From a virus (lineage: Duplodnaviria; Caudoviricetes), in the IMG/VR virus record IMGVR_UViG_3300028591_000139, positions 35,510 to 99,509 of that record: a DNA stretch of 64,000 nt, one strand, 5' to 3'. Shown here piece by piece: positions 10,114-64,000 of this stretch. Each line of letters opens with the position of its first letter. The first letter of the stretch is position 1. The translations under genes were made by a program, and so were the position numbers. The notes below the pieces were generated by a model. The model was not told the origin of the DNA. It worked only from the letters and a program-made list of their open reading frames with translations, and did not search any database.

Positions 10114-10115
10114 AA

Positions 10116-13789: not shown

Positions 13790-14749
13790 ATGCCAAAGAA
13801 ATTAACAACGGAAGAATTTATAAAAAGAGCAAAACTGCTTCATAATAATAAATATGACTATTCAAAATCTGAATATAATACAGCAAAAGAAAAAATTTGC
13901 ATAATATGTCCGGAGCACGGTGAATTCTGGCAAACTCCAACCGACCATTTAAGTGGAAGGGGATGTTATAAGTGTGGAATAGAAAGGACAAAAGAATCAC
14001 AAAAATTCACTACAGAACAGTTTATAGAAAAAGCTAAACAAACCCATGGTGACAAATATAATTATTCAAAAGTTAATTATGTTAACTCACAAACACCAGT
14101 AATTATTACATGTCCAAAACATGGAGATTTTATTATGCGTCCAAACGACCACATTCAAGGCCAAGGTTGCCCAAAGTGCAAGTTAATATTTCTAAGGAAT
14201 AAATTCTCTCTCACAACTGAACAATTTATTAAAAAAGCAAGAGAAATACATGGTAATAAATATGTTTATTCTAAAGTAAAATACGTGAATAATAGGACAA
14301 AAGTTTGTATTATATGCCCAAAACATGGTGAATTTTGGCAAACTCCGGACAAACATTTGCAAGGGTGTAATTGTCCCAAATGCAATAAAAGCAGATTAGA
14401 AGAAAAAGTTAGCCTTATTTTATCAAAAAATAACATTGACTTTGAAGAGCAAAAGCATTTTGAATGGCTTGGTAGACAAAGTTTAGATTTTTTTCTTCCA
14501 AAGTTTAGTATAGGAATTGAATGTCAAGGAGTAGAACACTTTAAACCTGTGGAAAGATTTAAAGGAAGCGGAGGCTTTGAAAATACCAATGAAAGGGATG
14601 TATTAAAATATAGGCTTTGCGGTAACAATAAAGTCAAATTACTTTATTATACAAATCTTAAAGAATATAACACATTTCTCAATGAATCTTTAATTAAAAA
14701 TGAAGATGATTTAATCAAAGTAATCACAGAAAATAATAAAAATATATAG
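13790..14749 (+). CDS. Homing endonuclease: CPxHG zinc-ribbon repeats plus Vsr/DUF559-like nuclease
   Basis: Three YDYSK..ICPxHGEFWQ..GCxxC repeats; SLDFFLP..GIECQGVEHF. Confidence 0.85.
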   Translation: MPKKLTTEEFIKRAKLLHNNKYDYSKSEYNTAKEKICIICPEHGEFWQTPTDHLSGRGCYKCGIERTKESQKFTTEQFIEKAKQTHGDKYNYSKVNYVNSQTPVIITCPKHGDFIMRPNDHIQGQGCPKCKLIFLRNKFSLTTEQFIKKAREIHGNKYVYSKVKYVNNRTKVCIICPKHGEFWQTPDKHLQGCNCPKCNKSRLEEKVSLILSKNNIDFEEQKHFEWLGRQSLDFFLPKFSIGIECQGVEHFKPVERFKGSGGFENTNERDVLKYRLCGNNKVKLLYYTNLKEYNTFLNESLIKNEDDLIKVITENNKNI

Positions 14750-15636: not shown

Positions 15637-15658
15637 TGCCAACAGATATATCGTTACT
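15637..15658 (+). repeat. Solo copy of the 22-bp TIR of the TnpB elements
   Basis: tgccaacagatatatcgttact matches the TIR at 47146-47167 at 20/22 positions. Confidence 0.7.
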
Positions 15659-35172: not shown

Positions 35173-37140
35173 TCAGGTGCCAACAGGTATATTATTACCT
35201 ATGTTCATATATTCCATTTCACAGTTATAGAATTTAAATGATTTCATATATCCTATAAATGTTCCAGCGAAGTTTTCTTCCAATGGATATGTTCTTGTTG
35301 GGTCAAGCATATAATTTGGTAAGACTGTTTCTGCCAATCCTTGTGTTCCACCGCCCAACGATATGTTAAATGGCACTCCTTCTTGTTTTTCATATAAATC
35401 ATTAAGTTTATGGAAATTAAATTTGGGCAATGTTTTTGTTACGTATACCAATTTTCCATCAACATAGAAATATAGTTTTATTCCGGTGAATATTGATTTT
35501 ATTTTAACGTGCACAACGTGCCATTCACAATCTTTAATAACATTTGGGAATGAATATCCTTCAATGACTGAATATTTATGTTCATTTTTTGCCTCGCAAT
35601 CGAATATTAAATATCTATATCCAATTTCTCCGTTATCTGTTATTCTTAATGCAAATGCGTTATTATATATATCTTTATATAAATCAGTATATTCTGAATT
35701 TGCTTTATCTCTTAATTTATCAATATCATTTACGGTATATCCTGTTTTTGTTCTATTCATTAAGATAAATAAATTGCCTTTAAATTTATCTTTCTTGCCA
35801 TAGAGCATCATTTTAGTGCCTTCTTCCCAATTATTTATTGTGAAACCTGTTTTTGTTCTATCAAATAATATAAATTTATTATCGGTATAGAAATAATAAT
35901 CATTTGCTGATTTCAGCATAAAATCATTATCTGTTTTATATTCAAAATCGCTTATATTCAATTCTGCCTCAATATAGTCTGAATCATAGTCCAACCCATC
36001 AAAGCCGTCTATATATCCATCTCCAAATAATTCACAACCGGATGATGGTTCATCTTTATCTTCCGCCCTGACATATTTTTGTTTTACGCAGCCGCACGCT
36101 GTAAAGAAAGAAACTTGCTTTGTTTTTGTCTTTTTTTCTTCCAAATCGCAGCACCAACTATCCATTGTAGTATGTGTCAATGTTTCATCTATTGTTTTTG
36201 GTGTAATATCAAAGTCCAAATAATCATCCAATATGTTTTCTCCATCGCAGCTTACTGTTCCTGAGAAAAGTTCTTCTTCACTTGTTCTATAGTATGACTC
36301 ATCATAATAATTAAAGTTCGTATAGTCATCAATATCTAAAAATTCTTCAATATAATCAGGATTTGGATTATAGAAATTACCTATTATATAATCTTTTTTA
36401 TCTATGTGGGCATCTTCAATATAATCATCGTATGATAAGGTTGAACATGATTCTTTATCTTCTTCATCATATAGATAAATCCATTTATTTTCGGCCCTTG
36501 TTCCCATATAGAAGAATATTCCCTTATTATTTGGGTATTTATCATTTAATGTTTTTTCAGATTCCTTTTCAAAATCACATTTATTTAAGGTAAATTCCAA
36601 TTCCCACGTATCTAAATCGTCCATTTTATAAGGGAGAACAGAATATTTATTACATTCTGTCATAAAAAAGCCTTGATAAAATCCGCCATTGAATTTTATC
36701 ATATCATTTTCTATTTTTAATGGATATTCATATAATAAAGTAGTTCCGCTTACAGCATGGAGCTTTAATCTATTATCTCCTTCTTCTATATCATATTTTG
36801 AATTGGTATAATAATTAACAAAATCCTTATTTGATATTCTGTCCTTTCTATATTGTATTAAACCATTATCTATACCGGTATATCCAATATTATTAAGCGT
36901 ATACGTGGTTGTTATGGCGCTTTCCCATTGATACTTGTTTGAACTATAAATCCATGTATCTCCACTAAAGCAGTCTTTATCTGAAACATCTATATATGAT
37001 ACCAAACAATCATCATACATAAAGCTACTATTGAAATTATAGCTTCCATAAGCATCATTGTTTATGAAAAAATCCCAATAGTCATCTTTATTTACCCTTA
37101 ATTTGAAAATATGATAGTTATTTTCTTTTAAATTAGCCAC
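35173..37140 (-). CDS. Putative virion protein with a ConA/LamG-like region; last codons supplied by a TIR
   Basis: WHVVHV..LYFYVDGKLV..FIGYMKSFKFY; the terminal GNNIPVGT is encoded almost entirely by the TIR. Confidence 0.6.
   Translation of the reverse strand: MANLKENNYHIFKLRVNKDDYWDFFINNDAYGSYNFNSSFMYDDCLVSYIDVSDKDCFSGDTWIYSSNKYQWESAITTTYTLNNIGYTGIDNGLIQYRKDRISNKDFVNYYTNSKYDIEEGDNRLKLHAVSGTTLLYEYPLKIENDMIKFNGGFYQGFFMTECNKYSVLPYKMDDLDTWELEFTLNKCDFEKESEKTLNDKYPNNKGIFFYMGTRAENKWIYLYDEEDKESCSTLSYDDYIEDAHIDKKDYIIGNFYNPNPDYIEEFLDIDDYTNFNYYDESYYRTSEEELFSGTVSCDGENILDDYLDFDITPKTIDETLTHTTMDSWCCDLEEKKTKTKQVSFFTACGCVKQKYVRAEDKDEPSSGCELFGDGYIDGFDGLDYDSDYIEAELNISDFEYKTDNDFMLKSANDYYFYTDNKFILFDRTKTGFTINNWEEGTKMMLYGKKDKFKGNLFILMNRTKTGYTVNDIDKLRDKANSEYTDLYKDIYNNAFALRITDNGEIGYRYLIFDCEAKNEHKYSVIEGYSFPNVIKDCEWHVVHVKIKSIFTGIKLYFYVDGKLVYVTKTLPKFNFHKLNDLYEKQEGVPFNISLGGGTQGLAETVLPNYMLDPTRTYPLEENFAGTFIGYMKSFKFYNCEMEYMNIGNNIPVGT
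35178..35199 (+). repeat. Solo 22-bp TIR overlapping the 3' end of the 35173..37140 gene
   Basis: tgccaacaggtatattattacc, identical to 41172-41193. Confidence 0.85.
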
Positions 37141-39099: not shown

Positions 39100-39407
39100 T
39101 ATTTACTTTTTAATTTAAAAACCTATATTATATAAGTGTGGCAAGCAATGCTGCACTTATATATTTTTAGGCAATAATATAGCAGTTGGCACAAATGATT
39201 TATAAAATGCAGTCAGAAATGGCTGCATTTATTGTTGAGGTCTCCCCCATCTAAATGAAATATAGTTTAGAATATCTCTTGTGATAAGTTGATAGACTTG
39301 CCTTGCTGAATTCTCATTGCCAAGCGAGAAAGTTACTATTCTTCCAACATTAACAAGCCATATATGTCTTCTTACGTCATACTCTAAACTATTACCATTT
39401 TCACGTA

Positions 39408-39550
39408 CCGTATATAAAATTCTATGAAAATCTATGAATCTCATACATTTTATTTCTTGTTTCAACCTATCACTACTCTTTAGGTGGTAAACCACGTTCA
39501 TCCATAGTTGGATAGTCCACAAGCGTAAATTCGGTAGTACGGCTACCTAT
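39408..39550 (-). ncRNA. Orphan omega-RNA-like sequence of a second TnpB family (possibly IS607-type)
   Basis: Homologous to the 3' region of the tnpB remnant at 63199-63345 (gtactaccgaatttacgcttgtgga..ggttgaa.caagaa); no adjacent tnpB. Confidence 0.65.
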
Positions 39551-39935
39551 ATTTATTTACTTTATTTATCTTTGTACTCATAATATAAATATCACTAAAG
39601 TTGAAAAAGTTTCGTATTTTATCAAATTATTTTATATTCTTTAATAGATTTTTGATGAACAGTTATTAACCCTTATATCTGTGTTTGGATTGTTTTGGAA
39701 TCTTCCAATAGTACCGTTGTTTAGTCTTACTATATTCATAACATCATTATAGACAAATCTTGGAAATAAGAAATTAATTAGATTAACAGAAAGTGATTTA
39801 CATCAAATTGTGAAAGAATCTGTTAATAGAATATTAAACAATATAACGAAGAAAAAGTAAAATTTTTCTTCGTTTTTTGCCACTTTTTAAAACTACGTGA
39901 TATTTATATATAGAAAAAATTAAAAAGTATATATT

Positions 39936-41096
39936 ATGAAACGAGCATACAAATACAAGATTAAACCAACATACAAGCAGCAACATCAGTTGTTGCAAGC
40001 TTTTGGCTGTGCTCGTTTCATATATAACTGGGGGCTTGATAAGAAAACAAAGGCTTGGACTAACGAACGCAAAACCATAACATATTTCCAACTTGCAAAG
40101 GAATTAACTACATTAAAGAACACCGAAGAACATAATTGGCTGAAAGACGTACCAAGTGAGTGCTTACAGCAGTCATTACGTAATCTTGATAATGCATATA
40201 CGCAGTTCTTCAAAGCGAAGAAAGGCTTTCCAAAATTCAAGTCAAAGAGAAAGTCAAAAGATGTTTCAAAATACACACAAGCCATTTATTTTGACTTTGA
40301 TGGTTGGAAGGTTAGAATACCAAAGTGCGGATGGGTTAAGCTTTGCGAGAATAAGTCATTTGATTTATCAACGTCCAAAATTGGAACATTAACAGTTAGT
40401 AGGGATAAGTGCGGAGAATATTGGTGTACCATTGTGGTTGAGGATAACAAACCACAGAAATCGAAAGCCAAGATTTCTGAAGATACAAGTGTTGGAATCG
40501 ACTTGGGCATCAAGGACTACGCAATTCTATCTGACGGAACTAAATACTCAAATCCAAAGTATTACGAGCGTAGCCAACAAAGGCTGAAACTATTACAACA
40601 AAGGTTTGCAAAGACAATGAAGGATTCAAAGAGACACGAGGTAATGAGAGTTAAAGTTGCGAGACAGTATCGTAAGATAACCAATATGCGTAATGACTTC
40701 CTTCATAAATTAACAACAGACCTTGTTAATAGATTTGATACAATATGCCTTGAGAACCTTAACGTTGAAGGTATGATGAAGAATCACAACCTTGCAAAAA
40801 GCATTCAATCAGTTTCTTGGGGAGAATTTGTTAGGCAAATTAAGTACAAAAGTGAATGGTTTGGAAAGAACGTGATATTCATTGGTAGGTTTGAACCAAG
40901 TTCAAAGACTTGCAGCAATTGTGGATATGTCAATCAAGACTTGAAGTTGTCAGACCGCGAATGGGTATGTCCTATTTGTGGTGAACACCATGACAGGGAC
41001 GTTAATGCTGCAATTAATATTAAGAGATTTGCCTTAAATCCTCAAGCCTTGGTAGGCTTTGAGGAAAAGGTTTTAGAAATAACGGACCGTAGGTAG
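39936..41096 (+). CDS. tnpB: RNA-guided endonuclease TnpB
   Basis: N-terminal HTH, RuvC GIDLG / CLENL / DRDVNAA, zinc finger CSNC..CPIC. Confidence 0.95.
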   Translation: MKRAYKYKIKPTYKQQHQLLQAFGCARFIYNWGLDKKTKAWTNERKTITYFQLAKELTTLKNTEEHNWLKDVPSECLQQSLRNLDNAYTQFFKAKKGFPKFKSKRKSKDVSKYTQAIYFDFDGWKVRIPKCGWVKLCENKSFDLSTSKIGTLTVSRDKCGEYWCTIVVEDNKPQKSKAKISEDTSVGIDLGIKDYAILSDGTKYSNPKYYERSQQRLKLLQQRFAKTMKDSKRHEVMRVKVARQYRKITNMRNDFLHKLTTDLVNRFDTICLENLNVEGMMKNHNLAKSIQSVSWGEFVRQIKYKSEWFGKNVIFIGRFEPSSKTCSNCGYVNQDLKLSDREWVCPICGEHHDRDVNAAINIKRFALNPQALVGFEEKVLEITDRR

Positions 41097-41171
41097 GCGG
41101 TTTGATGGGCGGTGAGGGTAAAGTGGTTGCACTCCCTATGAAACGTCAAGATTGTAAATCCTTAAGGCTTA
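41082..41171 (+). ncRNA. omega-RNA 3' scaffold plus 22-nt guide (41150-41171)
   Basis: gaggg..ccctatgaaacgtcaa end is shared with elements 2 and 3 with covarying stems; 5' end undefined. Confidence 0.7.
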
Positions 41172-41209
41172 TGCCAACAGGTATATTATTACCTTTTTTT
41201 TTAACAGTT

Positions 41210-42343
41210 ATGGCAAAAAAAATAAATCTTGAACAATTTATAAAAAAAGCAAAAGAAGTTCATGGCAACAAATATGATTATTCAAAAACTAAATATATCA
41301 ATAACAGGACTAAAATTTGCATAATATGTCCAAAACACGGTGAGTTTTGGCAAGCGCCAGGAATACACTTGGAAGGGCATGGCTGTAAAAAATGCGCAAT
41401 AGAATATAAATCGAACTTAAGAAAATACTCTGCTGAAGAATTTATAAAAAAAGCACGTGAAGTCCACGGTGATAAATATGATTACTCAAAAGTTAATTAC
41501 ATTAATAGCCAAACAAAAGTTTGCATAATTTGTCCGGAGCATGGAGAGTTTTGGCAGAAGCCAAATAATCACTTACAAGGTCAAAGATGCGGAGGCTGTC
41601 ATGGAACGCATAAATTAGGAACAGAATCTTTTATTGAAGAAGCTAAAAAAATTCATGGAAATAAATATGACTACTCAAAAGTTGAATATGTCAATAGTAA
41701 AACTAACGTTTGTATAATATGCCCGGAGCATGGCGAATTTTGGCAAAATCCATATAAACACTTAAATGGAAGTATGTGCCAAAAATGTACTAAAAATCAT
41801 AGCTATACGGCAGAAGAATGGATAGAAGAAGCCAAGCGAGTGCATAACAATAAATATGATTACTCAAAAGTTAATTATATTAATGGCCAAACAAAAGTTT
41901 GCATAATATGTCCGGAACATGGAGAGTTTTGGCAAATACCAAAATATCATTTGCAAGGTTGCGGCTGTCCAAAATGTAATCAAAGTCATCTTGAAGCGGA
42001 AATAGAAAATCTTTTAAAAGAAAATTCTATAGAATATCTTGAATATTATTCGCCAAAATGGTTAGGAAGACAGCATTTAGATTTTTATTTACCTGATTAT
42101 AATATAGCAATTGAATGCCAAGGAGAGCAGCACTTTGAACCCGTTAGTTTTAATTCCGATAAATCTGAAAGCACAAAGCAAAAAAATTTTGACAAAATAC
42201 AAGAAAGAGATAAACGCAAAGCAAAATTATGTGAAGAGAATGGTTTAAAAATGTTATATTTCACACATTATGAAAAAATTAATGAATTAGGAAATATTTA
42301 TAAAAACGGAGATAAACTTTTAAACGAATTAAAATGTCATTAA
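41210..42343 (+). CDS. Homing endonuclease (CPxHG repeats plus Vsr/DUF559-like nuclease)
   Basis: Four repeats; HLDFYLP..AIECQGEQHF; ATG at 41210 lies outside the TIR. Confidence 0.85.
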   Translation: MAKKINLEQFIKKAKEVHGNKYDYSKTKYINNRTKICIICPKHGEFWQAPGIHLEGHGCKKCAIEYKSNLRKYSAEEFIKKAREVHGDKYDYSKVNYINSQTKVCIICPEHGEFWQKPNNHLQGQRCGGCHGTHKLGTESFIEEAKKIHGNKYDYSKVEYVNSKTNVCIICPEHGEFWQNPYKHLNGSMCQKCTKNHSYTAEEWIEEAKRVHNNKYDYSKVNYINGQTKVCIICPEHGEFWQIPKYHLQGCGCPKCNQSHLEAEIENLLKENSIEYLEYYSPKWLGRQHLDFYLPDYNIAIECQGEQHFEPVSFNSDKSESTKQKNFDKIQERDKRKAKLCEENGLKMLYFTHYEKINELGNIYKNGDKLLNELKCH

Positions 42344-47144: not shown

Positions 47145-47168
47145 AGGTAACGATATACCTGTTGGCAC

Positions 47169-47385
47169 AAAAACCTCCTTGCTGTAACAAGGAGGGGAAA
47201 CCACAAAGGGGTTTTGGCGCATGTGTCTTACCGAGCTACATGCAAAACTCTGCCTATCAAGTCCTTGACTTGCAGACACCATCCCTTTGACAAGATGGGG
47301 CAACGTTTAAGTACCACCATAGTTGCTATTGTACTTACTTCACTATGTAATTTGGCGTTCTGTACATATGGCGGCTAAACGCTAC
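47169..47385 (-). ncRNA. Candidate structured small RNA transcribed divergently from tnpB
   Basis: Promoter TTTG-N19-TAATTTTG (47418-47388, minus strand), several hairpins, terminator cctccttg/caaggagg plus U-tract. Confidence 0.55.
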
Positions 47386-47510
47386 CGCAAAATTACAAAA
47401 TCTCGCCGATATAGCAAAAACTTTTCGGAGAGATTTAATAAAAAAGTTTGAGTAAAAACAGTATTTTTTGCTTTAACTTGATATTTATTAGTAGATAAAC
47501 TGATAATACT

Positions 47511-48638
47511 ATGATTAAAGCATACAAATACAAAATAAAACCAAACAAACGCCAAGAGGAACTTCTATCAAAGTTCTTTGGGTGTTGCAGGTATATATAC
47601 AATTGGGGGCTTAATCGTAAAACATCAGCTTACAAAGAAAATGAAACGCATATTAACTATGTACAGCTTGCAAAAGAGCTTACCACCTTAAAGCAAACAG
47701 AAGATTGCAATTGGCTTAAAGAAGCACCTAATGAATCATTGCAGCAATCGCTAAGATGCCTTGACAATGCTTTCACTGCATTCTTCCGCAAGAAAGCAAA
47801 ATATCCAAGATTCAAGTCAAAGAAACATACAAAGGATTCGGCAAAGTTCATTAACTCCGTTCACTTTGATTTTGAAAATTGGAAAGTGAAACTTCCAAAA
47901 CTTGGATGGATTAAATTATGTGAGAATAGGACATTTGGCCAAAGCATTTGTAAGCAAGGTACTTGTACTGTCAGTAGAGACCATTGTGGAACTTATTGGT
48001 GCTCAATAACGGTAGATGACATGCAGCCAAAACCAGCGAAAACCAAGTTGGTTAAGGATAATGCGGTTGGAATCGACCTTGGCATTAAGGATTACGCAAT
48101 ACTCTCAGATGGAACTAAATACTCAAACCCAAAACACCTTGAAAAGACGCAAAGAAAACTTGCGTGGTTACAAAGGGATTTTGCAAGAACAAAGAAAGAT
48201 TCAAAGAATCACGAAAAGATGAGGATAAAGGTTGCGAAGTGCTATAGAAGCATCACCAACCAAAGGAATGACTTTTTGCATAAGCTATCCACTCATCTTG
48301 TAAGGAACTACGATGTGATTTGTCTTGAAGATTTGAATGTTAAGGGAATGGAGCAGAACCATCACCTTGCAAGAGCAATCCAAGGTGCAAGTTGGGGTGA
48401 GTTTGTTAGACAGTTGGAGTATAAGAGTGAATGGTACGGTAAGAATATACTGTTTATTGGTAGGTTTGAGCCAAGTAGCAAGTTATGCCACAAGTGCGGA
48501 TATATCAACCAAGAATTGCAGTTAAAAGACCGTGAATGGGTTTGTCCTGTTTGTGGTGAGCTCTTGGATAGGGATGTTAATGCTGCAATTAACATTAGAG
48601 AGATAGCCTTCGACAAGCAGAACCTTGTTGGAGTATAG
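47511..48638 (+). CDS. tnpB: RNA-guided endonuclease TnpB
   Basis: GIDLG / CLEDL / DRDVNAA, zinc finger CHKC..CPVC. Confidence 0.95.
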   Translation: MIKAYKYKIKPNKRQEELLSKFFGCCRYIYNWGLNRKTSAYKENETHINYVQLAKELTTLKQTEDCNWLKEAPNESLQQSLRCLDNAFTAFFRKKAKYPRFKSKKHTKDSAKFINSVHFDFENWKVKLPKLGWIKLCENRTFGQSICKQGTCTVSRDHCGTYWCSITVDDMQPKPAKTKLVKDNAVGIDLGIKDYAILSDGTKYSNPKHLEKTQRKLAWLQRDFARTKKDSKNHEKMRIKVAKCYRSITNQRNDFLHKLSTHLVRNYDVICLEDLNVKGMEQNHHLARAIQGASWGEFVRQLEYKSEWYGKNILFIGRFEPSSKLCHKCGYINQELQLKDREWVCPVCGELLDRDVNAAINIREIAFDKQNLVGV

Positions 48639-49012: not shown

Positions 49013-50383
49013 ATGAAATATGACAAAATAGTTGAAAGAGCGCGTAAAATTCATGGCGATAAATATACTTATCCGCCATTTGATGAAATTCCTGTTGGCA
49101 AAAAAATGAAAATAATATGCCCAATTCACGGTGAATTTGAACAAACAGCATTTGCTCATATGAAAGGCCAAGGTTGCCCAAAATGCGTTGGAGAAAAAAG
49201 AGGATATACTACCGAAGATTTCATCAAAGACGCAAAATTAAAATTTGGTGATAAATTTGATTATTCAAAAACAGAATATACCGGAAGAAGAAATAAAGTC
49301 CTTATCATGTGCAAGGATTTTATAACAGATGAAAACCCAAATGGAGAATTTTGGCAGTTACCATTTAATCATTTGAAATCAAAAGATGGTTTTCCGTTTA
49401 TGGGTGAAAGAGGTAGAAAATACGGGAAAATATCTGATGAAGAACAAATATTAAAAAAAACAAAAAAATTCATTGAAAAAGCAAAACAAATCCATGGCGA
49501 TAAGTACGATTATTCAAAAGCCGTATATAATGGATGTTTTCAAAAAATATGCATTGTTTGTCCAAAGCATGGCGAATTTTGGCAACTTCCTGGTAATCAT
49601 ATAAAAGGCTGCAACTGCCCAACATGTTCAAATAAAACGCCAATAACAAAGGATGAATTTATTAAAAAAGCAAATGAAATTCATAATTTTAAATTTGATT
49701 ATTCAAAAGTTGTTATTGGAAAATCAAATGATAAGGTATGTATAATATGCCCGGAACACGGTGAGTTTTGGCAAACAACATCAAATCATTTAAGAGGAAG
49801 AGGATGCATTAAATGCTCAAGAAACAAAAAACTAACAACAGAAGAATTCATAGAAAAATCAAAATCAATTCACGGAGATAAATATGACTACTCAAAAGTA
49901 GAATATGTAAATAATGCTACCAACGTAATCATAACATGTAAAAAACATGGTGATTTTAAACAACTTCCTTCGGTACATTTATATGGTGGCGGATGCCCAA
50001 TATGCAACGAAAGCCATATGGAAAATGAACTAAGTCTGTTATTCAATGACAATAATATAAGATATGAAAGACAAAAAACATTTGAAACAATCAAATATAA
50101 AAAGGAACTTCCATTTGACTTTTATTTGCCGGATTATAATGTTGTCATAGAATGCCAAGGAGAGCAACACTTTAAAAAACATCACTTTTTTAATGATGAA
50201 AATAGATTTGAAAAGGATAAAATAAAATATGAAGGCTGTTTAAATAACAATATTAAAATATTGTACTACACAAATTATAACAGCTATAAAAAATATTTTA
50301 ATGAAATCTATAATGAAAACAATACATTTAACAATAAAATTAAATTATTAAATGAAATCATAAAACAAAAAAATACCGAGTAA
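49013..50383 (+). CDS. Homing endonuclease (CPxHG repeats plus Vsr/DUF559-like nuclease)
   Basis: Five repeats; PFDFYLP..VIECQGEQHF. Confidence 0.85.
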   Translation: MKYDKIVERARKIHGDKYTYPPFDEIPVGKKMKIICPIHGEFEQTAFAHMKGQGCPKCVGEKRGYTTEDFIKDAKLKFGDKFDYSKTEYTGRRNKVLIMCKDFITDENPNGEFWQLPFNHLKSKDGFPFMGERGRKYGKISDEEQILKKTKKFIEKAKQIHGDKYDYSKAVYNGCFQKICIVCPKHGEFWQLPGNHIKGCNCPTCSNKTPITKDEFIKKANEIHNFKFDYSKVVIGKSNDKVCIICPEHGEFWQTTSNHLRGRGCIKCSRNKKLTTEEFIEKSKSIHGDKYDYSKVEYVNNATNVIITCKKHGDFKQLPSVHLYGGGCPICNESHMENELSLLFNDNNIRYERQKTFETIKYKKELPFDFYLPDYNVVIECQGEQHFKKHHFFNDENRFEKDKIKYEGCLNNNIKILYYTNYNSYKKYFNEIYNENNTFNNKIKLLNEIIKQKNTE

Positions 50384-53249: not shown

Positions 53250-55781
53250 TTATACGCTTATCGTCTGTGAGTTTATTGGCTGATAGACCGTCTGGAAGGT
53301 GTCATTTACCGTATCGTGAGAAATGGTCTTAACCGCGCTAGTGTTGTTCACGCCTTGTGCTATCTTGAAGTTCCGAAGCTTACTAGAGATTGAAGTAGTC
53401 TTGGTGGAGGTGATGTCAATATACTGATTGCTATTTTCTACAATTACGTTATAGATGTTGTCCTTTAGGAAACGGATGTGATGGCAATTATTTCCTATAG
53501 AATTATAGGAGGAAATGTTTCCTATAGAATTACTGCCGAAATCGTTTCCTATAGAATTACCGCCGAAATCGTTTCCTATAGAATTACTGCCGAAATCGTT
53601 TCCTATAGAATTACTGTTGAAACTGTTTCCTATAGAATTACTGCCGAAATCGTTTCCTATAGAATTATTGTAGAAATCGTTTCCTATAGAATTACTGTTG
53701 AAATAGTTTCCTATAGAATTACTGCCGAAATTGTTTCCTATAGAATTACTGCCGAAATTGTTTCCTATAGAATTACTGTAGGAATTGTTTCCTATAGAAT
53801 TATTGTAGAAATAGTTTCCTATAGAATTACTGTAGAAATCGTTTCCTATAGAATTATTGTAGGAATTGTTTCCTATAGAATTACTGTAGAAATCGTTTCC
53901 TATAGAATTATTGTAGAAATAGTTTCCTATAGAATTATTGTAGAAACCGCTTCCTATAGAATTATAGTTGCAGGCCGTGCCAAATGAGTTAGAGTAAATA
54001 AATGTGCCAAACAACACATTGTTTGGAAGAAAAGCTACTTCTTTTTCAAACACATTACTATATACATCATGGCCGCCAAGAGAATAATCTGTTTGTGCGC
54101 CGCCACCACTATCACTGCTGAAAGTAAAGGCCCAAATAAAATCATCAGAATCAGCCTCTAAACCCGTGGGCACTTCATCAGGATTCGCAATCATATATAA
54201 GCCACTTAATCCTTGGCGCTCGCTCACGGTATCTGTAGCCTTGTATCGCTTGAACTGAATGTTCTTAAAGTCATATGGACACTCGTTATTAAACTCGTCT
54301 CTCATCCATGTAATTGTTCCCTTGCCGCCATTCTGTTCAATGGTAACGGTATCAATCACTCCAAATTCTTCATCTGGGCCTTCATCATCACCGTACCATA
54401 CATACAATTGGCTATCAACTGTTTCGCTTTTTGACACAACACACACACAGCCCCAATCTTCTTCAAATAGGCTGTTTCTCCACATTATGTAAGTGGTTCC
54501 GTTTATCTCAACGGTTCCATCCTTAAAGAAGATATACCGGCCATCTGATGTGCTTATCATGTGTGTTCCAATCTTCGACGACCAATTAATGTTGTCGAGT
54601 CGGTACTTAAGTTCCCATGCTTCAAGCTTATTCCTGTAGAAATAACCGCTTCCTTCTACATACACCAATCTGTCACCTCTGTTAGTTTCCCTATCACCAT
54701 ACAATGTATCATCTACAAGGACTATGAAGTCTTCTGAATAATTTTCAACAGACAACTCATTTGGAAGCCATAAACGTCTGGTTAAAATACTATATTCTGT
54801 TTCATCATTTTTTTCATATTTCTGCCAACGATAATAAGTGACTCCATCAAAAGAGAACGTTCCTACATAATCAAAATACTCTTCTGTATCTACTTCATTT
54901 GAGTATTTTAGGCCGTCTGTTTTATAAAGTCGTCTAATAGACGCGATTTCCGCATGTAATGCAGCGTGAGCGTTCTCATTGAGCTTATCGGGGGCATCTG
55001 CCGTTACGATAATATCGAATTGGTGTCCGGCGCTTCGCGTATTTGGTTGCATTGTTGTGGTAACATAGTCGGTGATTCTATATTTTGCTCCCGGTTCTAG
55101 TTCGCCATTATTTCTCAGCGTTACCAACTCAGCATATGTTATTTCCTTTAAGAATTTCTCATCGAGCGCATTTAATGCATATGAAATGGTTTCAATATCA
55201 TTTGCATTTGCAACGGTTCTTGAGTTCAAATCAACAAGTGCTGCTGCAACGGTTTCGCACTGTCCGCTTAAATCATCAATTTCAGACCTGACAGTTGCGC
55301 TAAATGCGCTATATATGTCTGTATCAAGTTTTCCGCTTATGCTATTATTTATTTGTGTTTGAACGGTTCCTGTTGTAAAATGTATTGTTGTGTCTGCCGT
55401 GTGTGCTGTCACTGTTGTATTAACAGCTCCACTATAGGTTTCAAACTCACTAACATTTAATTTATTTTCGTTCAAATCGTTCAAAGCGCTTGATATAACT
55501 TTCTCGTTATCCTCAATGCACTTTGTGACTGTTATTGCGCTATTTTCGCCCGTAAATGCGCTGCCAAGTTTTTTCTCAGAATAATAATCATCGGATGAAA
55601 ATGTTACAACATTTCCGCTTGATGACTTGATGGACAAGGTTTCATATCCATCAGCATAGTTTACCGCAATTTCTCCGTCAACAAATAAGTCCGGAGTTGG
55701 CAATTTAGGAGATACCGTCCCTCCGTTTTCCACAACAACGCTACTTTTGAGGTGTTGTATGTGATTAATGTTTTTTCCCAT
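53250..55781 (-). CDS. Tail fibre / receptor-binding protein with a 9-aa NSIGN repeat solenoid
   Basis: N-terminal GEIAVNY and coiled coil; PYDFKNIQFKR; 18 NSIG repeats. Confidence 0.7.
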   Translation of the reverse strand: MGKNINHIQHLKSSVVVENGGTVSPKLPTPDLFVDGEIAVNYADGYETLSIKSSSGNVVTFSSDDYYSEKKLGSAFTGENSAITVTKCIEDNEKVISSALNDLNENKLNVSEFETYSGAVNTTVTAHTADTTIHFTTGTVQTQINNSISGKLDTDIYSAFSATVRSEIDDLSGQCETVAAALVDLNSRTVANANDIETISYALNALDEKFLKEITYAELVTLRNNGELEPGAKYRITDYVTTTMQPNTRSAGHQFDIIVTADAPDKLNENAHAALHAEIASIRRLYKTDGLKYSNEVDTEEYFDYVGTFSFDGVTYYRWQKYEKNDETEYSILTRRLWLPNELSVENYSEDFIVLVDDTLYGDRETNRGDRLVYVEGSGYFYRNKLEAWELKYRLDNINWSSKIGTHMISTSDGRYIFFKDGTVEINGTTYIMWRNSLFEEDWGCVCVVSKSETVDSQLYVWYGDDEGPDEEFGVIDTVTIEQNGGKGTITWMRDEFNNECPYDFKNIQFKRYKATDTVSERQGLSGLYMIANPDEVPTGLEADSDDFIWAFTFSSDSGGGAQTDYSLGGHDVYSNVFEKEVAFLPNNVLFGTFIYSNSFGTACNYNSIGSGFYNNSIGNYFYNNSIGNDFYSNSIGNNSYNNSIGNDFYSNSIGNYFYNNSIGNNSYSNSIGNNFGSNSIGNNFGSNSIGNYFNSNSIGNDFYNNSIGNDFGSNSIGNSFNSNSIGNDFGSNSIGNDFGGNSIGNDFGSNSIGNISSYNSIGNNCHHIRFLKDNIYNVIVENSNQYIDITSTKTTSISSKLRNFKIAQGVNNTSAVKTISHDTVNDTFQTVYQPINSQTISV
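53491..53964 (-). repeat. 27-bp in-frame tandem repeat, 18 cores
   Basis: Invariant ttcctatagaatta core every 27 bp. Confidence 0.95.
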
Positions 55782-58900: not shown

Positions 58901-60045
58901 ATTCTATGGAAATAGATGGAACTGTATTACCTGATGTCGTTAATGAATATGCATTCAACACTACAGGAATGCATACGGTTAAATACAGCATTTGGTCATT
59001 AAAAATAGCGAATGGATTATTTAGCGGATGTACTGAACTTTATTCTATTGTTTCATTCCCAACAGCTTTGAATGAAATAGGCAACGATGCGTTTAGAGGA
59101 TGTAGCAGCCTTACGGGTGTAACAATACCTGATAGTGTTACAACTATTGGCACACTTGTTTTCAGCGATTGTGGGTCAATGCTACGTGCAGAAATAGGAA
59201 GCGGGGTGACCTCAGACATGGATTATACATTCTCACGATGTAGCGGATTAACCAGCTGTACATTTGCACAAGGTGTTCAAATTAGTGCTTTTACCGCAAC
59301 TTTTAGTGATTGCACTAGCCTACAAAACACCTCAATTCCTGATAGCGTTACGCATATTGGTGGTGTGTCTTTCAGTAGATGCGGTAGTATTACAAGTATA
59401 ACTATTCCAAATGGAGTCACAACTATTGGTAGTGGCGCTTTCGAATATTGTAGTGGCCTAACAAGTATTGCAATACCGAGTGCCGTTGAATCTATTGGAG
59501 ATAGTGCTTTTTACTATTGCAGAGCTATAACTAGTTGCACCATAGGCCAAAACTCACGGCTTACAACAATTGGCACAAACGCATTTTCAAATTGTACATC
59601 GCTTGAATCTATAAATCTGCAAGAAGGGCTGACTAACATTGGCAGTTACGCTTTTTACTACTGTGAAAATTTATTAAGCATTTACATACCAACAACATTA
59701 ACAGAGATAAATGATTATACGTTCCAAGGTTGCCAAAGCTTAACAGCTTTAACGTTCCCAGATAGTATAACAGCAATAAAGAATCAGTCATTCCATTTAT
59801 GCAAAGGCTTAACAAATATTAGTGTAGGTACCGGAATAACTTCAATAGAGTTAAATGCTTTCTTGGGTTGCAGCAATCTAATAAGCGTTACAATAGCCGC
59901 AACAACGCCACCATCACTTGGCGCTTCAGCATTCCATAATAACGCATCGGGAAGAAAATTCTATGTACCAAGTGGAAGTGTAACAGCTTATCAATCTGCA
60001 ACCGATTGGTACGAATATAGAAATGATGTTGAAGCGATACCTTAA
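55963..60045 (+). CDS. Large adhesin-like protein: about seven ~87-aa beta-rich repeats plus two BspA-LRR blocks
   Basis: YPSEIEG..FTLSFxY..VGEN..RTI..PYTVxQKK repeats; IGxxAFxxCxxLTSIxIP LRRs. Confidence 0.85.
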   Translation: MANYLKLFKNHEDYIRYKESVSIMPNISHCIKDIELHTDECVPSVVYELIGVPSYPSTISAVDESFDLSFSYKKTTNTIACSTIVTMGSDTVNVYVGENTSTENDRVISDTFNYNGLLIPYTVTQSKLCVEQTTYELNGTPSYPSEIEGDTTAFTLSFNYNRIDTDDECVEQITTGNQTTSIVVGENTTSENRTITGNYEFNGLDVPYTVVQKKMCTPDTAYELINTPSYPTEVEGDVTAFTLSFDYRRTDYDTHCSQSSTTGSDSTTIIIGENETGADRTISSAYTYNGINVPYTVLQKKLCTVSTVYEQIGNATYPSEIECDDSTFNLSFDYRVTNTDKYCNQTVTTGSETTVITVGENMTSENRTISDSYPYHGINVAYTVLQKKRCTVSSVYELVGNPTYPSAIDGNVTSFNLSFNYKKTDTDMYCNQTVTNSSDTVSVYVGENTTAQDRTITDSYDYHGMSVPYSVLQRKQCSVGTFYELIGTPTYPSEIEGDVSTFTLSFDYKMIVTNDQCQQTVTTGSDSTVINVGINPNTGVSRTISDAYDYHGMSVPYTVTQKKMCVVGSEYEQIGSATYPSEIEYNVTSFTLSFNYRKTDTDKYCGQTATTGSNSTVITVGENPLYEDKTISSSYTYNGMSIAYSLTQKKRNHYQVTGVFNVTNTGSNTKIVDGTNLVDCVEIDNTVYRTVNSGFTFSTTGEHTVKYSLKNVTETGFGLLDDCDNLVNVTVEEGISGISQNSFSNCSNLSGVTLPESTKIIGNAAFMMDTNLANLNNNTQYYTRVVIPSGVTAIEANAFSSCQSIRTVNTSLCILLTSIGESAFALCTALSNFIIPSGVTTIERETFEGCTNLTTIYIHTGITSIGEEAFRSSGLIDVDIHNGVTSIGQRAFMDCSSLTRVDMRPLTPPTLGSYAFDNNAAGRVIYVPCDSFEVYKTANNWSRYQNSMFPIGCPLVATFNVTSTSEPTKLKNSFAGTNVYSMEIDGTVLPDVVNEYAFNTTGMHTVKYSIWSLKIANGLFSGCTELYSIVSFPTALNEIGNDAFRGCSSLTGVTIPDSVTTIGTLVFSDCGSMLRAEIGSGVTSDMDYTFSRCSGLTSCTFAQGVQISAFTATFSDCTSLQNTSIPDSVTHIGGVSFSRCGSITSITIPNGVTTIGSGAFEYCSGLTSIAIPSAVESIGDSAFYYCRAITSCTIGQNSRLTTIGTNAFSNCTSLESINLQEGLTNIGSYAFYYCENLLSIYIPTTLTEINDYTFQGCQSLTALTFPDSITAIKNQSFHLCKGLTNISVGTGITSIELNAFLGCSNLISVTIAATTPPSLGASAFHNNASGRKFYVPSGSVTAYQSATDWYEYRNDVEAIP

Positions 60046-60149
60046 AAAAATAAAAAAAAAAAACAATAATAATTGCCGGAAAAATATAATAATTTTTTTC
60101 CGGCATTTTTATTTATTTTAATTTTTAAATTTTTATTTTTTATATAAAA

Positions 60150-60461
60150 ATGGGTTATATTTATTTAATTGGAGAGGTTGGAAATGAAAATCGTTTTAAA
60201 ATTGGTTCAACACGTGGAAAAAATGCCAATAACAGGCTCAAACAACTTCAAACGGGCAATTCAGAAGAATTATATGTAAAACATATATATGAAACGTCAA
60301 GGCCATTTAAACTTGAAAAGATGCTTCATAACAAGTTTAAATCATCAAACCTTGTTGGAGAATGGTTTGAGCTTTCAAAAGATGATGTTGATAATTTTAT
60401 AAACACTTGCAATGAATTTCAAAACATAATAAATGCCTTAAAAGAAAATCCATTCTTCTAA
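60150..60461 (+). CDS. GIY-YIG (T5orf172-like) protein
   Basis: GYIYLI..FKIG.T..RLKQLQTGN..LEKMLH..GEWF. Confidence 0.85.
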   Translation: MGYIYLIGEVGNENRFKIGSTRGKNANNRLKQLQTGNSEELYVKHIYETSRPFKLEKMLHNKFKSSNLVGEWFELSKDDVDNFINTCNEFQNIINALKENPFF

Positions 60462-60835
60462 GGCATTGCTTTTTTATTTTCCATTATTAGTTTTTGTTGC
60501 AGTTTTTTCTTTATAATATCAGCATGACATGGCTGTGGATGACAAAAACATCCCAAGTATATATCCATTCCGGATTTATAACACTCATATATCGTATTAA
60601 AAGCATCTGTAAAATCTTTATCCGTTCCATACATTTCATCAAAATAAAGCTCATATGCTTCTATGGCTTCTTTTCGCGTTCTAAAGGATAATTTTGCCAA
60701 ACTGCTTCGTTTGCCATCATGTGTGTATGGATTACCCAACGGTGATTTTAACGCTTTGCTTCTTGCAACATAGAAATATCCGGGTTTATTGGAAAAATCC
60801 TCTTGCTTTATATTAACAACATATATCTTCCCCAT
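60458..60835 (-). CDS. DUF4326-like protein
   Basis: SPLGNPY and LGCFCHPQPCHADII motifs. Confidence 0.8.
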   Translation of the reverse strand: MGKIYVVNIKQEDFSNKPGYFYVARSKALKSPLGNPYTHDGKRSSLAKLSFRTRKEAIEAYELYFDEMYGTDKDFTDAFNTIYECYKSGMDIYLGCFCHPQPCHADIIKKKLQQKLIMENKKAMP

Positions 60836-60840
60836 TATTA

Positions 60841-61239
60841 TTATATTTCTCTTTTGCTTTCATCTTTTAATGAAAATTCCAAATAATGATAGCCATTTCT
60901 AAATTTTCTATCATAATAACGTGTCTCTTCTTCCGAATAATCTGGTATAAATACTTTTAAATAATTGCCATTTATATTGTTTTTTAAAAAGGCGTGGAAC
61001 TTTTTTTGCAATTCCCAATAAGGCACTTCGAGCGGTATAAACGATAACACATAAAACAAAGAACACCTTTCACTTTTTAAAACAATATCAACCGCGTTTC
61101 TTTCAATATCATGTTCTCTTAGACTGTACACGTTTTTAGGGACTCTTTTAGCACGAGCAACCATGTTGCCACATTTAAAAAAAGAAGTATATAAACCCTC
61201 TTCTTTTAAAAATCTAAATAATACTTGCGTTGCATTCAT
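60841..61239 (-). CDS. Hypothetical protein
   Basis: ORF track; start probably MNATQV. Confidence 0.6.
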   Translation of the reverse strand: MNATQVLFRFLKEEGLYTSFFKCGNMVARAKRVPKNVYSLREHDIERNAVDIVLKSERCSLFYVLSFIPLEVPYWELQKKFHAFLKNNINGNYLKVFIPDYSEEETRYYDRKFRNGYHYLEFSLKDESKREI

Positions 61240-61243
61240 TTTT

Positions 61244-61444
61244 TTAAAAATTCTTATCAATAAGTTCTAGCAGCTTATTCACATCTTTTGTTGGGAGTTT
61301 TGATATTTTCTCTCCCACCCTTGCAAGAAGATTTTTATCAATCTCGCCATTTTGCAAGGCTGTTGAAAACTTATCAATGGTATCAAACTGTTCCTTTGAA
61401 AGCATTGATTTCATTGCTTTTCTAACAAATATATTATCTAACAT
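61244..61444 (-). CDS. Hypothetical protein (start MLDNIF)
   Basis: The upstream extension in the ORF track runs into the TIR; the likely promoter (63054-63061) is now displaced by element 3. Confidence 0.6.
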   Translation of the reverse strand: MLDNIFVRKAMKSMLSKEQFDTIDKFSTALQNGEIDKNLLARVGEKISKLPTKDVNKLLELIDKNF

Positions 61445-61490
61445 ACCTATAATAACAATATTTTTTAAGGGAACTATATACTTGTTGGCA

Positions 61491-61580
61491 CTAAACCAAT
61501 ACAATATATAACTTACTGTTTCATAGGGAAACTAATGTTCTTGCCCTCCACAGTCTTAATCTCGCTTCCCGACGAGCATT
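61491..61580 (-). ncRNA. omega-RNA 3' scaffold plus 22-nt guide (61512-61491)
   Basis: ccctatgaaacagtaa, then gttatatattgtattggtttag, then the TIR. Confidence 0.7.
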
Positions 61581-61595
61581 ATTTTCATTATTTTT

Positions 61596-62723
61596 TTATA
61601 CCCCAACAAGATTCTGCTTGTCAAAGGCAATCTCCTTGATGTTTATTGCAGCGTTAACATCCCTATCAAGATGCTCACCACAAACAGGACAAATCCACTC
61701 ACGGTCTGACAACTGTAACTCTTGGTTGATGTAACCGCACTTGTGGCATAACTTGCTGCTTGGCTCAAATCTGCCAATGAATAATACGTTCTTCCCATAC
61801 CAGTCAGACTTGTATTCAAGTTGTCTGACAAACTCACCCCAAGATGCACCTTGGATTGCCCTTGCAAGGTGATGGTTCTGTTCCATACCCTTTACATTCA
61901 AATCCTCAAGACAAATCACATCGTAATTCCTTACAAGATGGGTTGACAACTTGTGCAAAAAGTCATTACGTTGATTGCTAATGCTTCTATAGCACTTTGC
62001 AACCTTAATCCTCATCTTCTCATGGTTTTTGGAATCTTTCTTAGTCCTCGCAAAATCCCTTTGTAACCAAGCGAGTTTCCTTTGTGCTTGTTCAAGATAC
62101 TTTGGGTTGGTGAACTTTGTACCATCTGAGAGTATTGCATAGTCCTTGATGCCAAGGTCGATTCCAACTGCATTATCCTTAACCAACTTGGCTTTCGTTG
62201 GTTTTGGCTGCAAGTCATCAACCGTTATAACGCACCAATATGTTCCGCAATGGTCTCTACTGACAGTACAAGTGCCTTGTTTACAAGTGCTTTGGTCAAA
62301 GGTTTTATTTTTACATAGTTTAATCCAACCAAGTTTTGGCAGTTTCACTTGCCAATTCTCAAAGTCAAAATGAACTGAATTTATAAATTTTGATGAATCT
62401 TTTGTATGCTTCTTTGACTTAAATCTTGGATACTTACCGTTTTTCCTAAAGAAGTTTGTAAATGCGTTATCAAGGCATCTAAGTGATTGTTGTAACGATT
62501 CATTTGGTGCTTCGTTGAGCCAATTACACTCTTCAGTTTTCTTTAGGGTGGTAAGTTCCCTTGCAAGTTCGACATAACTAACCTTTGTGCCATTTTCCTT
62601 ATATGCTGATGTTCTTTTATTTAGCCCCCAATTATAGATATACCTGCAACATCCGAAGAACTTTTGTAATAGTTCCTCTTGCTGTTGGTTTGGTTTTATT
62701 TTGTATTTATAGGCTTTCAGCAT
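61596..62723 (-). CDS. tnpB: RNA-guided endonuclease TnpB
   Basis: Close paralogue of 47511..48638; D-E-D triad intact; start MLKAYKY. Confidence 0.95.
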   Translation of the reverse strand: MLKAYKYKIKPNQQQEELLQKFFGCCRYIYNWGLNKRTSAYKENGTKVSYVELARELTTLKKTEECNWLNEAPNESLQQSLRCLDNAFTNFFRKNGKYPRFKSKKHTKDSSKFINSVHFDFENWQVKLPKLGWIKLCKNKTFDQSTCKQGTCTVSRDHCGTYWCVITVDDLQPKPTKAKLVKDNAVGIDLGIKDYAILSDGTKFTNPKYLEQAQRKLAWLQRDFARTKKDSKNHEKMRIKVAKCYRSISNQRNDFLHKLSTHLVRNYDVICLEDLNVKGMEQNHHLARAIQGASWGEFVRQLEYKSDWYGKNVLFIGRFEPSSKLCHKCGYINQELQLSDREWICPVCGEHLDRDVNAAINIKEIAFDKQNLVGV

Positions 62724-62849
62724 AATATTCATCAGTTTTCTACTAATAAATATCACGTTAAAGCAGAAAATACCGTTTTTACTCAAACTTTTTTATTAAA
62801 TCTCACTGAAAAGTTTTGTTGTTTCAGTGAGATTTCGTAATTTTGCAAA

Positions 62850-63002
62850 CTGAACTACGCTTGTGTTTTTTTAGTATACGTTTAAAGCGGAAATCACACG
62901 AATTGTGCGGTCAGATGTTAAGTATAGAAATAGGCACAACACAGTTCAAAAAAACATTTTAGTTTCCTCCTTGCCCTTCCAAGTGTGAGGAGGTTTTTGT
63001 TT
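62850..63002 (+). ncRNA. Candidate structured small RNA transcribed divergently from tnpB
   Basis: Promoter TTTG (62815-62818), 19 nt, TAATTTTG (62838-62845); terminator cctcct/aggagg plus T-tract. Confidence 0.55.
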
Positions 63003-63198
63003 ATTGCCAACAAGTATATAGTTCCCTTTTTTAATTATTAAATACGCTTTAAGCAAATATACAAAAAAAACATTAAAAATATAAATTCTTACGGTTAAAT
63101 ATTGTTAAATTGCCTTCTTTTTAATCACTTTAACTCATCGTAAAATTTGAAAACGCATCCATTATGTTTAATTGCTTTATGCTCACAAACGCATCTGA

Positions 63199-63425
63199 CA
63201 GTATGTTAAAACTTGAACAAACTTGTCTGCCCATTATTAACTTCTTGCTTCAACCTACCACTGCTTTTTAGTGCCTCATTACTGAGTCTGTCATCCACAG
63301 TTGGGTAATCCACAAGCGTAAATTCGGTAGTACTGCTACCTATTATTCTTAAACCTTCATCAAGTATGTTTAACGCTGCATTGTAGTCCCTTTCAATTAC
63401 CTCACCACATTGGGGACAAACCGCT
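63199..63425 (-). pseudogene. tnpB: 3' remnant of a second-family tnpB with its omega-RNA/right end
   Basis: Manual translation VCPQCGEVIERDYNAALNILDEGLRIIG; ends ttttaacatactg. Confidence 0.8.
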
Positions 63426-63546
63426 CTTCCTTAATTCCTTAATTTTTAAAATTTCATTTTTATCCATATAGTATAATCGAATTTATATATAAATATCATG
63501 GAAAATATATAAATTCGATTATACTACAATAAATTTAGTAAAAATG

Positions 63547-63619
63547 TTCCCGAGGCAGGGCTCAAACCTGCAACACTCACAGCCAAATTGTGATGCTCTA
63601 TCAATTGCGCTACTCAGGA
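63547..63619 (-). tRNA. tRNA-Gln(UUG), atypical
   Basis: Cloverleaf tcctgag/ctcggga; anticodon arm tcaca-atTTGgc-tgtga; T arm gcagg-tttgagc-cctgc; D and T loops are non-canonical. Confidence 0.65.
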
Positions 63620-63836
63620 ATTAAAAAAAAATTCCCACCAACATTTCTGTTAATGGGAACATAAGAATAAATGTTATGCGAACAACAACTTCAATCATTA
63701 TTGCATTACAAATGAGTACTGACCGTTCCCTTGGCCAATATACTCATCATAGGATTGCTGTTGTCGTATAATATTGTAAATCATAAGGCAATATAAAACT
63801 ATTTTAAATATAAATATCTTTAACATTTAAAAAATG

Positions 63837-63874
63837 TGCGGATACCCGGATTTGAACCGAGACGCGTCTTTCAG
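63837..63874 (-). tRNA. 3' half of a tRNA (probably Leu) abutting a mobile-element end
   Basis: T arm ctcgg-ttcaaat-ccggg, acceptor tatccgc plus A, long variable-arm remainder; the 5' half is not in the window. Confidence 0.6.
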
Positions 63875-64000
63875 CAGTATGTTAAAACTTACACAAAGTT
63901 GAACTTCGTACTTTATTAACTTCTTGCTTCACAGAACCACTACTTTTTAGCGAACTGTTTCCAGTTGGGTCATCCACAGTTGGGTTCTCCACAAGCTTAG
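63875..64000 (-). mobile_element. Right end/omega-RNA of a second-family TnpB element, running off the window
   Basis: Homologous to 63199-63325 with the same ttttaacatactg terminus. Confidence 0.7.

Follow-up and report, generated by a model that had tools for sequence, protein, structure and literature searches.

IS1595-family transposons with TnpB cargo in a large tailed phage: a guide RNA whose last hairpin is most likely built on the transposon end

In a 64,000-nucleotide stretch of phage DNA (the window; bases 35510-99509 of the 99.5-kb IMG/VR virus contig IMGVR_UViG_3300028591_000139), three copies of a transposon-like element, numbered 1 to 3, carry a gene for the RNA-guided nuclease TnpB. 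In element 3, the best preserved at its ends, tnpB is followed by the scaffold of its guide RNA (omega-RNA), a short gap segment and the right inverted repeat. A first-pass annotation had taken the gap segment for an internal guide of fixed length, 22 nt, that travels with the element as part of a pre-programmed nuclease. This is most likely wrong. The segment forms a hairpin with the adjacent repeat, the arms of this hairpin covary, canonical relatives share the layout, and the insertion sites carry a one-sided motif. The so-called guide is most likely the 5' arm and loop of a guide-RNA hairpin whose 3' arm is the inner part of the inverted repeat, and the true guide would be read from the DNA beyond the element. 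The three-copy layout first described holds in full for elements 1 and 3, while element 2 keeps the left end only.

The contig codes for a tail sheath and BspA-type leucine-rich-repeat proteins, among others. Because of the tail sheath, an estimated completeness of 29% (CheckV) and the near-identical DNA held by sheep-gut metagenomes, it is regarded as a fragment of a large tailed phage of the rumen or gut.

Identity of the transposon

Members of the IS1595 family have GG-starting inverted repeats of about 20-40 bp, produce 8-bp target-site duplications and are moved by a DDE transposase. Element 3 has ends of this kind, identical at 22 of 22 positions (GGGAACTATATACTTGTTGGCA), and an 8/8 duplication, ttttttaa, just as the first reading of the window had reported (Table 1). 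The duplications of 20 relatives with both ends found, one of them with a doubtful left end (L214), match at 8/8 positions in 17 cases and at 7/8 in three. Ends of the same pattern were found in a further 29 viral loci, all without tnpB. Ten of these loci have paired ends, with 165-3087 bp between them and an 8-bp duplication that is perfect in most cases.

Neither the window nor the rest of the 99.5-kb contig encodes a DDE transposase. Among the relatives, identical ends surround a protein with the IS1595 DDE domain PF12762 (9e-46) and an N-terminal zinc ribbon in locus L024, and a 79%-identical transposase, located by tblastn, adjoins such an end in L014. A metagenome contig (L142, about 5860-10150 in record coordinates, minus orientation) holds a 4291-bp element with an 8/8 duplication (TTTAAATA), in which an IS1595 transposase (tblastn) is accompanied by a TnpB 80% identical to that of element 3, then the scaffold and the right end, and by approximately 1.9 kb of further cargo. 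This element can be classed as an autonomous IS1595 element. Since the contig lacks a transposase and these three loci pair the same ends with one of IS1595 type, elements 1 and 3 can in turn be classed as non-autonomous members of the IS1595 family, with tnpB as cargo, that would be moved in trans. The first-pass annotation had likened the ends to IS1595, had supposed mobilisation in trans by a transposase absent from the window and had advised a search of relatives for a DDE transposase with the same ends; the first two points hold, and such transposases were found.

Smaller derivatives also occur. In an 826-bp element (L256:706-1531), a truncated IS1595 transposase gene (residues 8-158) abuts the scaffold and right end, tnpB having been deleted, and L040, L125 and L155 are further scaffold-only remnants or mini-elements without tnpB. 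The group thus resembles known IS1595 elements with passenger genes and miniature inverted-repeat transposable elements (MITEs) in its GG ends and 8-bp duplications, in the combination of PF12762 with an N-terminal zinc ribbon in autonomous relatives, and in the presence of cargo-bearing and miniature derivatives in the same phages. Unlike other IS1595 passengers, the cargo here is an RNA-guided nuclease, and its RNA is predicted to fold with the transposon end.

The position of element 3 is consistent with a real insertion. The promoter-like motif TTTGTATATTTGC has five copies in the window, and the copy beside element 3 faces into the element. Without the element, this copy would lie approximately 44 nt from the ATG at 61444. 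Because this distance is similar to the 28-80 nt at the other copies, element 3 does part a promoter-like motif from the small gene at 61244-61444 (minus strand), in keeping with the earlier suggestion that it separates a gene from its likely promoter.

TnpB and the guide-RNA scaffold

The TnpB of element 3 has the Pfam domains OrfB_IS605, Cas12f1-like TNB and helix-turn-helix, and aligns over its full length with ISDra2 TnpB (E 2e-83, about 40% identity). Residues D190, E274 and D356 align with D191, E278 and D361 of ISDra2 TnpB. Six close relatives show no variation at these residues or at the four cysteines of the zinc finger. The RuvC D-E-D triad noted at first pass is thereby confirmed for this protein.

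Similarly, the covariation first seen in the scaffold stems of the three copies extends to a wider set, with compensatory changes in 13 of 19 predicted pairs across 22 relatives. A conserved structured RNA is thus predicted to overlap the 3' end of tnpB and to reach the end of the element, which lies 127 bp beyond the stop codon in element 3; the scaffold itself very likely starts within the 3' end of tnpB. Rfam scans at gathering and E-value thresholds assigned no RNA family to cargo or scaffold, returning only a tRNA-Gln. A reading of the left cargo as a group I intron or IStron was also considered and found to be unsupported.

A profile search for TnpB relatives yielded 75 viral loci. The order of scaffold (ending CCCTRTGAA.C...AA.), gap and right end recurs in approximately 20 of the 75, at 56-89% identity. 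In a midpoint-rooted FastTree tree, read without support values, the TnpBs associated with these ends group in one clade within the canonical TnpBs; element 2 and L096, both now lacking a right repeat, belong to it. Because there is one nested clade, the tree fits a single old capture of tnpB and not repeated nesting.

A hairpin between the gap segment and the inverted repeat

A pattern scan of viral and metagenome contigs gave 118 matches, or 116 insertions after two repeated flanks were removed, and the layout of scaffold, gap and right repeat is present in these 116 insertions. Gap length ranges from 8 to 34 nt, with a mode of 21 nt (21 of the 118 matches) and clusters at 21-25 nt and 8-9 nt, so the fixed 22-nt length first proposed is not upheld. 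Element 1, with its more distant TnpB, had been given the same gap as element 3; the two are indeed equal, at 21 nt and not 22 by the boundaries used here, and this agreement at the modal length is not a rule. Most gaps start with a conserved 9-11-nt ATAGTAAATCC. Element 3 and two relatives start with TTATATA instead (TTATATATTG in element 3).

In its distal half the gap shows complementarity to the inner half of the right inverted repeat next to it, and these arms covary between subfamilies (CCACaTTGTC/GACAAGTGG, CCTcGTTG/CAACAGG, CTTGcgaGCC/GGCcaaCAAG and GAGTcaACC/GGTcaACTC). Pairing between real gaps and their repeats averages 8.8 bp and -8.6 kcal/mol, as against 6.0 bp and -4.8 kcal/mol for shuffled gaps and 6.1 bp and -5.2 kcal/mol for gaps taken from subfamilies with a different repeat. 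The fold energy at the guide-RNA end (-9.3 kcal/mol) likewise differs from that at the left ends of the same elements (-4.3; p 9e-8) and at the ends of tnpB-less elements (-6.7; p 0.004). This hairpin is a specific feature of the guide-RNA end. In element 3 the predicted fold has two scaffold stems and then the gap-repeat hairpin (-9.9 kcal/mol, z -2.5), leaving the tail GUUCCC. The idea that the segment is aimed at the element's own inverted repeat was rejected, as the similarity is broken by indels and seed mismatches and reads better as a hairpin.

Comparison with related systems

A canonical IS200/IS605 element is present in the same phage, outside the window (G000:C1:9400-11400), with a tnpB 47% identical to that of element 3. 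It has a divergent open reading frame (ORF) that resembles Y1 tnpA by sequence, not by a family test, together with left and right hairpins with a CTTTAG loop, and has no inverted repeats. Its 3' end runs from CTATGAAGTCAGAAG through a hairpin and the tail TAGTTCAC to unrelated flank, and the same plan, with tails of 8-9 nt, is found in L047, L076/77, L091, L085, L088 and L094. Because these ends follow the order motif, hairpin, tail and flank, the guide of the canonical kin would start after the further hairpin and tail, and not after the ...AAG motif. The end of element 3, TAGTTCCC, matches the canonical tail at 7/8 positions. In ISDra2, the RNA covers the whole right end and only its last ~16 nt are flank-derived (Karvelis 2021, PMC8612924).

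The elements thus share with canonical IS605 and ISDra2 a homologous TnpB and the succession of scaffold-end motif, hairpin, short tail and element boundary, and the core of the canonical target-adjacent motif (TAM) resembles the probable T-N-A-T described below. Unlike canonical IS605, they lack both an internal Y1 TnpA gene and paired hairpins at the two ends, and have 22-bp inverted ends with 8-bp duplications, so that elements 1-3 fall outside IS200/IS605; the 3' arm of the hairpin and the tail here belong to the repeat of a DDE transposon. Fanzor offers a parallel in this respect: there, guide RNA and inverted repeat overlap, and a TAM can match the site of insertion (Jiang 2023, PMC10530073). 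Both cases have an RNA-guided nuclease within cut-and-paste elements with inverted repeats; a guide RNA overlapping the repeat and a TAM matching the insertion site would be shared as well. Unlike Fanzor, the present system is found in a prokaryotic-virus setting and has a plain TnpB, with no introns and no nuclear localisation signal.

The occurrence of TnpB in inverted-repeat DDE transposons (branches DDE-1 to DDE-6) has been described, as have solo TnpBs with the ends of transposase-bearing relatives, presumably mobilised in trans; IS630 is the only partner named in the main text (Altae-Tran et al. 2023, PNAS, PMC10691335). Elements 1 and 3 conform to that group in their inverted repeats, in a TnpB 3' end within 250 bp of the transposon end and in having transposase-bearing relatives, L142 holding both genes. 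In contrast to the published main text, the partner here is IS1595 and the hosts are rumen jumbo phages, the inverted repeat itself can be recognised in the terminal hairpin of the guide RNA, and insertion sites have a motif on one side only. A literature search for TnpB together with IS1595 found nothing relevant. A sister TnpB clade (L066-L073, L090, L095, L117; 46-47% identity to the TnpB of element 3) also has IS1595-like ends, more asymmetric (GGCAACTATATAGTAAATTAC... / ...GTAAGTGCC), with a hairpin directly after ...GTCAAT and T again as first flanking base.

Insertion sites and transcripts

With tnpB as the reference for orientation, 97 of 116 insertions have T as the first base of the duplication, and A at the eighth base, the symmetric position, occurs in 53 of 116, which is at background (Fisher 1.8e-9). 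Among the insertions with both flanks, A immediately precedes the duplication in 16 of 20, and a T often stands two bases to the left of that. A one-sided preference is not expected of a symmetric DDE transpososome, and none was found in nine tnpB-less elements with the same ends (7/18 end positions). The resulting motif, about T-N-A|T, resembles a TAM and shares its core with the ISDra2 TAM, TTGAT. Its position is the one required of a TAM for a guide taken from the flank past the right end.

Public sheep-gut runs were examined as contigs over 60000-64000. An RNA-library contig covers scaffold, repeat and flank (61394-61691); such a contig cannot show transcript ends or rule out DNA carry-over.

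Proposed mechanism and alternatives

In the model that we favour, with a probability of about 0.65, elements 3 and 1 would belong to an IS1595 lineage of rumen jumbo phages, carrying tnpB and omega-RNA as cargo, and an IS1595 DDE transposase encoded elsewhere would move them and make the 8-bp duplications. The 3' module of the omega-RNA would be built on the right inverted repeat. The scaffold (...CCCTATGAA.C...AAG) would be followed by a short linker, then by the hairpin, with the so-called 21-nt guide as 5' arm and the inner repeat as 3' arm, and last by the outer repeat as a single-stranded tail, which would copy the canonical IS605 hairpin-plus-tail. The guide would then be the flank just past the repeat, that is the 8 bp of the duplication with the 8-12 nt that follow, starting with TTAAAAAA in element 3, and each insertion would acquire its own guide, matching its empty site. 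The motif at the left target edge would act as TAM, and TnpB would cut alleles that lack the element, whether on a co-infecting phage genome or left behind by excision, leading to copying or retention of the element. Because of the layout in canonical kin, the repeat-built hairpin and the one-sided TAM-like motif, flanking DNA most probably supplies the guide, as it does for canonical TnpB and Fanzor, so that each copy would be armed against its own empty site.

Several points weigh against this model. The tail after the hairpin varies from about 3 to 12 nt (6 in element 3), compared with 8-9 nt in canonical kin, and fits poorly with a fixed guide start, and the conserved 9-11-nt linker of most relatives is absent from the canonical kin. 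The left-flank part of the site motif comes from only 20 insertions in AT-rich DNA, and the 116 insertions are not phylogenetically independent. The sequences show the IS1595 identity, the intact TnpB, the hairpin, the layout homologous to that of canonical kin and the site motif; the position of the RNA end, the TAM, cleavage and homing are steps that we infer. Further, the empty-site allele with a single ttttttaa, suggested earlier as a test, was not encountered: the contigs of the sheep-gut runs contain no empty-site join across element 3 (two joints were seen, each linking one repeat to another, and belong to other elements), and a search for relatives of the neighbouring gene found no empty allele.

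The first-pass proposal, that the 21-nt segment is a true guide directing TnpB to one fixed sequence of the host, a rival phage or a transposon, is unlikely. It accounts well for a segment that lies directly 3' of the last covarying scaffold stem, that is unpaired in the scaffold-only consensus fold and whose first 9-11 nt are conserved in most relatives, as a fixed target needs. Yet a guide would not fit into several of the gaps, changes in the distal half are matched in the neighbouring repeat and not in an outside target, canonical kin have a hairpin and tail at the same position inside the element, and the segment differs between elements 2 and 3, whose TnpBs are 89% identical; nor does the proposal predict the one-sided insertion motif. 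A search of the guides against the phage's own genome returned one notable match, that of the element 1 segment at 20960-20971 (12/12), which has no shared flanking motif and, being within chance for an AT-rich 200-kb search, was judged to be chance. That the conserved post-scaffold segment is a built-in guide of a portable nuclease directed against transposon ends, a host site or a rival phage is improbable as well. The hairpin might instead be a terminator, a processing site or a DNA-level signal that leaves no usable guide, with TnpB a passenger or using guide RNAs made elsewhere, such as those of gene-less scaffold mini-elements. A stable hairpin at the very end of the transcript unit would suit this, as would the scaffold-only derivatives (L040, L125, L155, L256) and the intact tnpB of element 2, which has neither hairpin nor repeat. 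We give it a low probability, since no U-tract follows the hairpin, tnpB is intact with its catalytic residues across the clade down to 56% identity, and the one-sided motif implies selection tied to RNA orientation.

The rival that the first-pass annotation itself had named is an IS605/IS1341-type tnpB element nested in an IS1595 MITE, the 21 nt being MITE sequence and an ordinary flanking guide against tnpB-less MITEs. This is very improbable. In its favour, a candidate Y1 TnpA is encoded elsewhere in the same phage, and elements 2 and 3 share ...AAATTAC upstream of the stem-loop before tnpB, recalling the target TTAC. However, homology among tnpB units with different left cargo starts at the promoter (about -55 to -75 nt), and that between elements 2 and 3 at -120, with no common left-end boundary or TAM, and no IS605-type pair of left and right hairpins is present. 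The TnpBs form one clade and always abut the right repeat, 1.35-kb elements hold only tnpB between their ends, and the tnpB-less alleles with TAM and segment that nesting predicts were found in 0 of the 29 tnpB-less loci with these ends. The reading of the segment as a hairpin arm, with a flank-derived guide, is therefore retained as the preferred one.

Other copies and genomic surroundings

Features of the elements are collected in Table 1. Element 2 is probably immobile and without a complete guide-RNA 3' module, because its right repeat is absent. Its left cargo (47168-47400) is non-coding, apparently more G+C-rich and contains several stem-like repeats; Rfam gave no match for it, and element 3 has nothing that corresponds. 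Of two solo repeats, that at 35178-35199 lies in a right-end sequence (window 35173-35210) that gives the last eight codons and stop of a 655-aa ORF (35173-37140), the end of which has apparently been remodelled by an old insertion or remnant.

Table 1. Features of the tnpB elements and related repeats (positions in the window)
Feature	Position	Strand	Remarks
Element 3 target-site duplication, guide-RNA-end copy	61461..61468	.	ttttttaa, 8 bp; TTAAAAAA in tnpB orientation
Element 3 right inverted repeat (tnpB orientation)	61469..61490	-	Inner half is the predicted 3' arm of the terminal guide-RNA hairpin; outer part is TAGTTCCC
Element 3 gap segment, 21 nt	61491..61511	-	Predicted 5' arm and loop of hairpin with inverted repeat
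Element 3 omega-RNA scaffold, 3' of stop codon	61512..61595	-	Hairpin 61557-61581, terminal stem 61515-61554, end CCCTATGAAACAGTAAG
Element 3 tnpB, 376 aa	61596..62726	-	RuvC D190/E274/D356 and zinc-finger cysteines intact
Element 3 non-coding left part	62727..63004	-	Conserved tnpB promoter region (about -70 to -1), covarying stem-loop 62801-62832, ~170 nt more
Element 3 left inverted repeat	63005..63026	-	Same sequence as right repeat
Element 3 target-site duplication, second copy	63027..63034	.	ttttttaa, 8 bp
Phage promoter-like motif TTTGTATATTTGC	63053..63065	-	Separated by element 3 from gene 61244-61444 (minus)
Element 1, IS1595-type shell, 2024 bp	39170..41193	+	Ends slightly diverged, duplication decayed (6/8)
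Element 1 left repeat	39170-39191	+	
Element 1 extra cargo	39192-39935	+	
Element 1 tnpB	39936-41096	+	63% identical to that of element 3
Element 1 scaffold end	to 41150	+	
Element 1 hairpin arm, 21 nt	41151-41171	+	
Element 1 right repeat	41172-41193	+	
Element 2, truncated copy	47146..~48740	+	Left repeat 47146-47167, no right repeat
Element 2 tnpB	47511-48638	+	89% identical to that of element 3; intact
Element 2 scaffold	to 48723	+	Then only first ~16 nt of hairpin arm
Solo right-end repeat	35178..35199	-	Small hairpin ttggcac tcag gtgccaa
Solo inverted repeat, diverged, same family	15637..15658	-	

Several other features of the window may be recorded. A paralogous gene family (13790-14749, 18682-20397, 41210-42343 and 49013-50383), members of which adjoin elements 1 and 2, consists of 63-68-aa repeats with the motif ...KAKEIHGDKYDYS... 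and has a common C-terminal block, ...ECQGEQHF...; Pfam gave only sub-threshold matches for the one member searched (41210-42343). An ORF at 53250-55781 contains a 27-nt (9-codon) tandem array of approximately 25 units (53378-54072). Beside the tRNA-Gln (63546-63619) lies a relic of a different TnpB type, comprising a C-terminal fragment with stop codons and a guide-RNA scaffold (63242-63394 and 63921-63999, both minus strand), 77-78% identical to L048/L050. Contig depth over 63216-63349 is very high in 4/4 runs, which indicates that the relic scaffold is multi-copy in that community.

Significance

TnpB in DDE transposons and solo TnpBs mobilised in trans were already known (PMC10691335). The present case adds the anatomy of the rewiring, with a hairpin and tail made from the repeat and supported by covariation, together with the oriented site motif. 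It also adds a full series in one phage community, from an autonomous element through a tnpB-only shell, a cargo-bearing shell and a truncated copy to scaffold-only remnants.

The finding shows the re-housing of an RNA-guided nuclease from the single-strand "peel-and-paste" IS605 into a double-strand cut-and-paste DDE transposon, the last hairpin and tail of the guide RNA having been remade from the new inverted repeat so that the nuclease could still read a guide from the flank. The elements are also compact natural variants of TnpB and guide RNA for study. Should the one-sided motif prove to be a TAM, it would argue that DDE elements in phages, too, are served by TnpB-driven homing. The re-housing itself would be a prokaryotic-virus counterpart of the route to the eukaryotic Fanzors.

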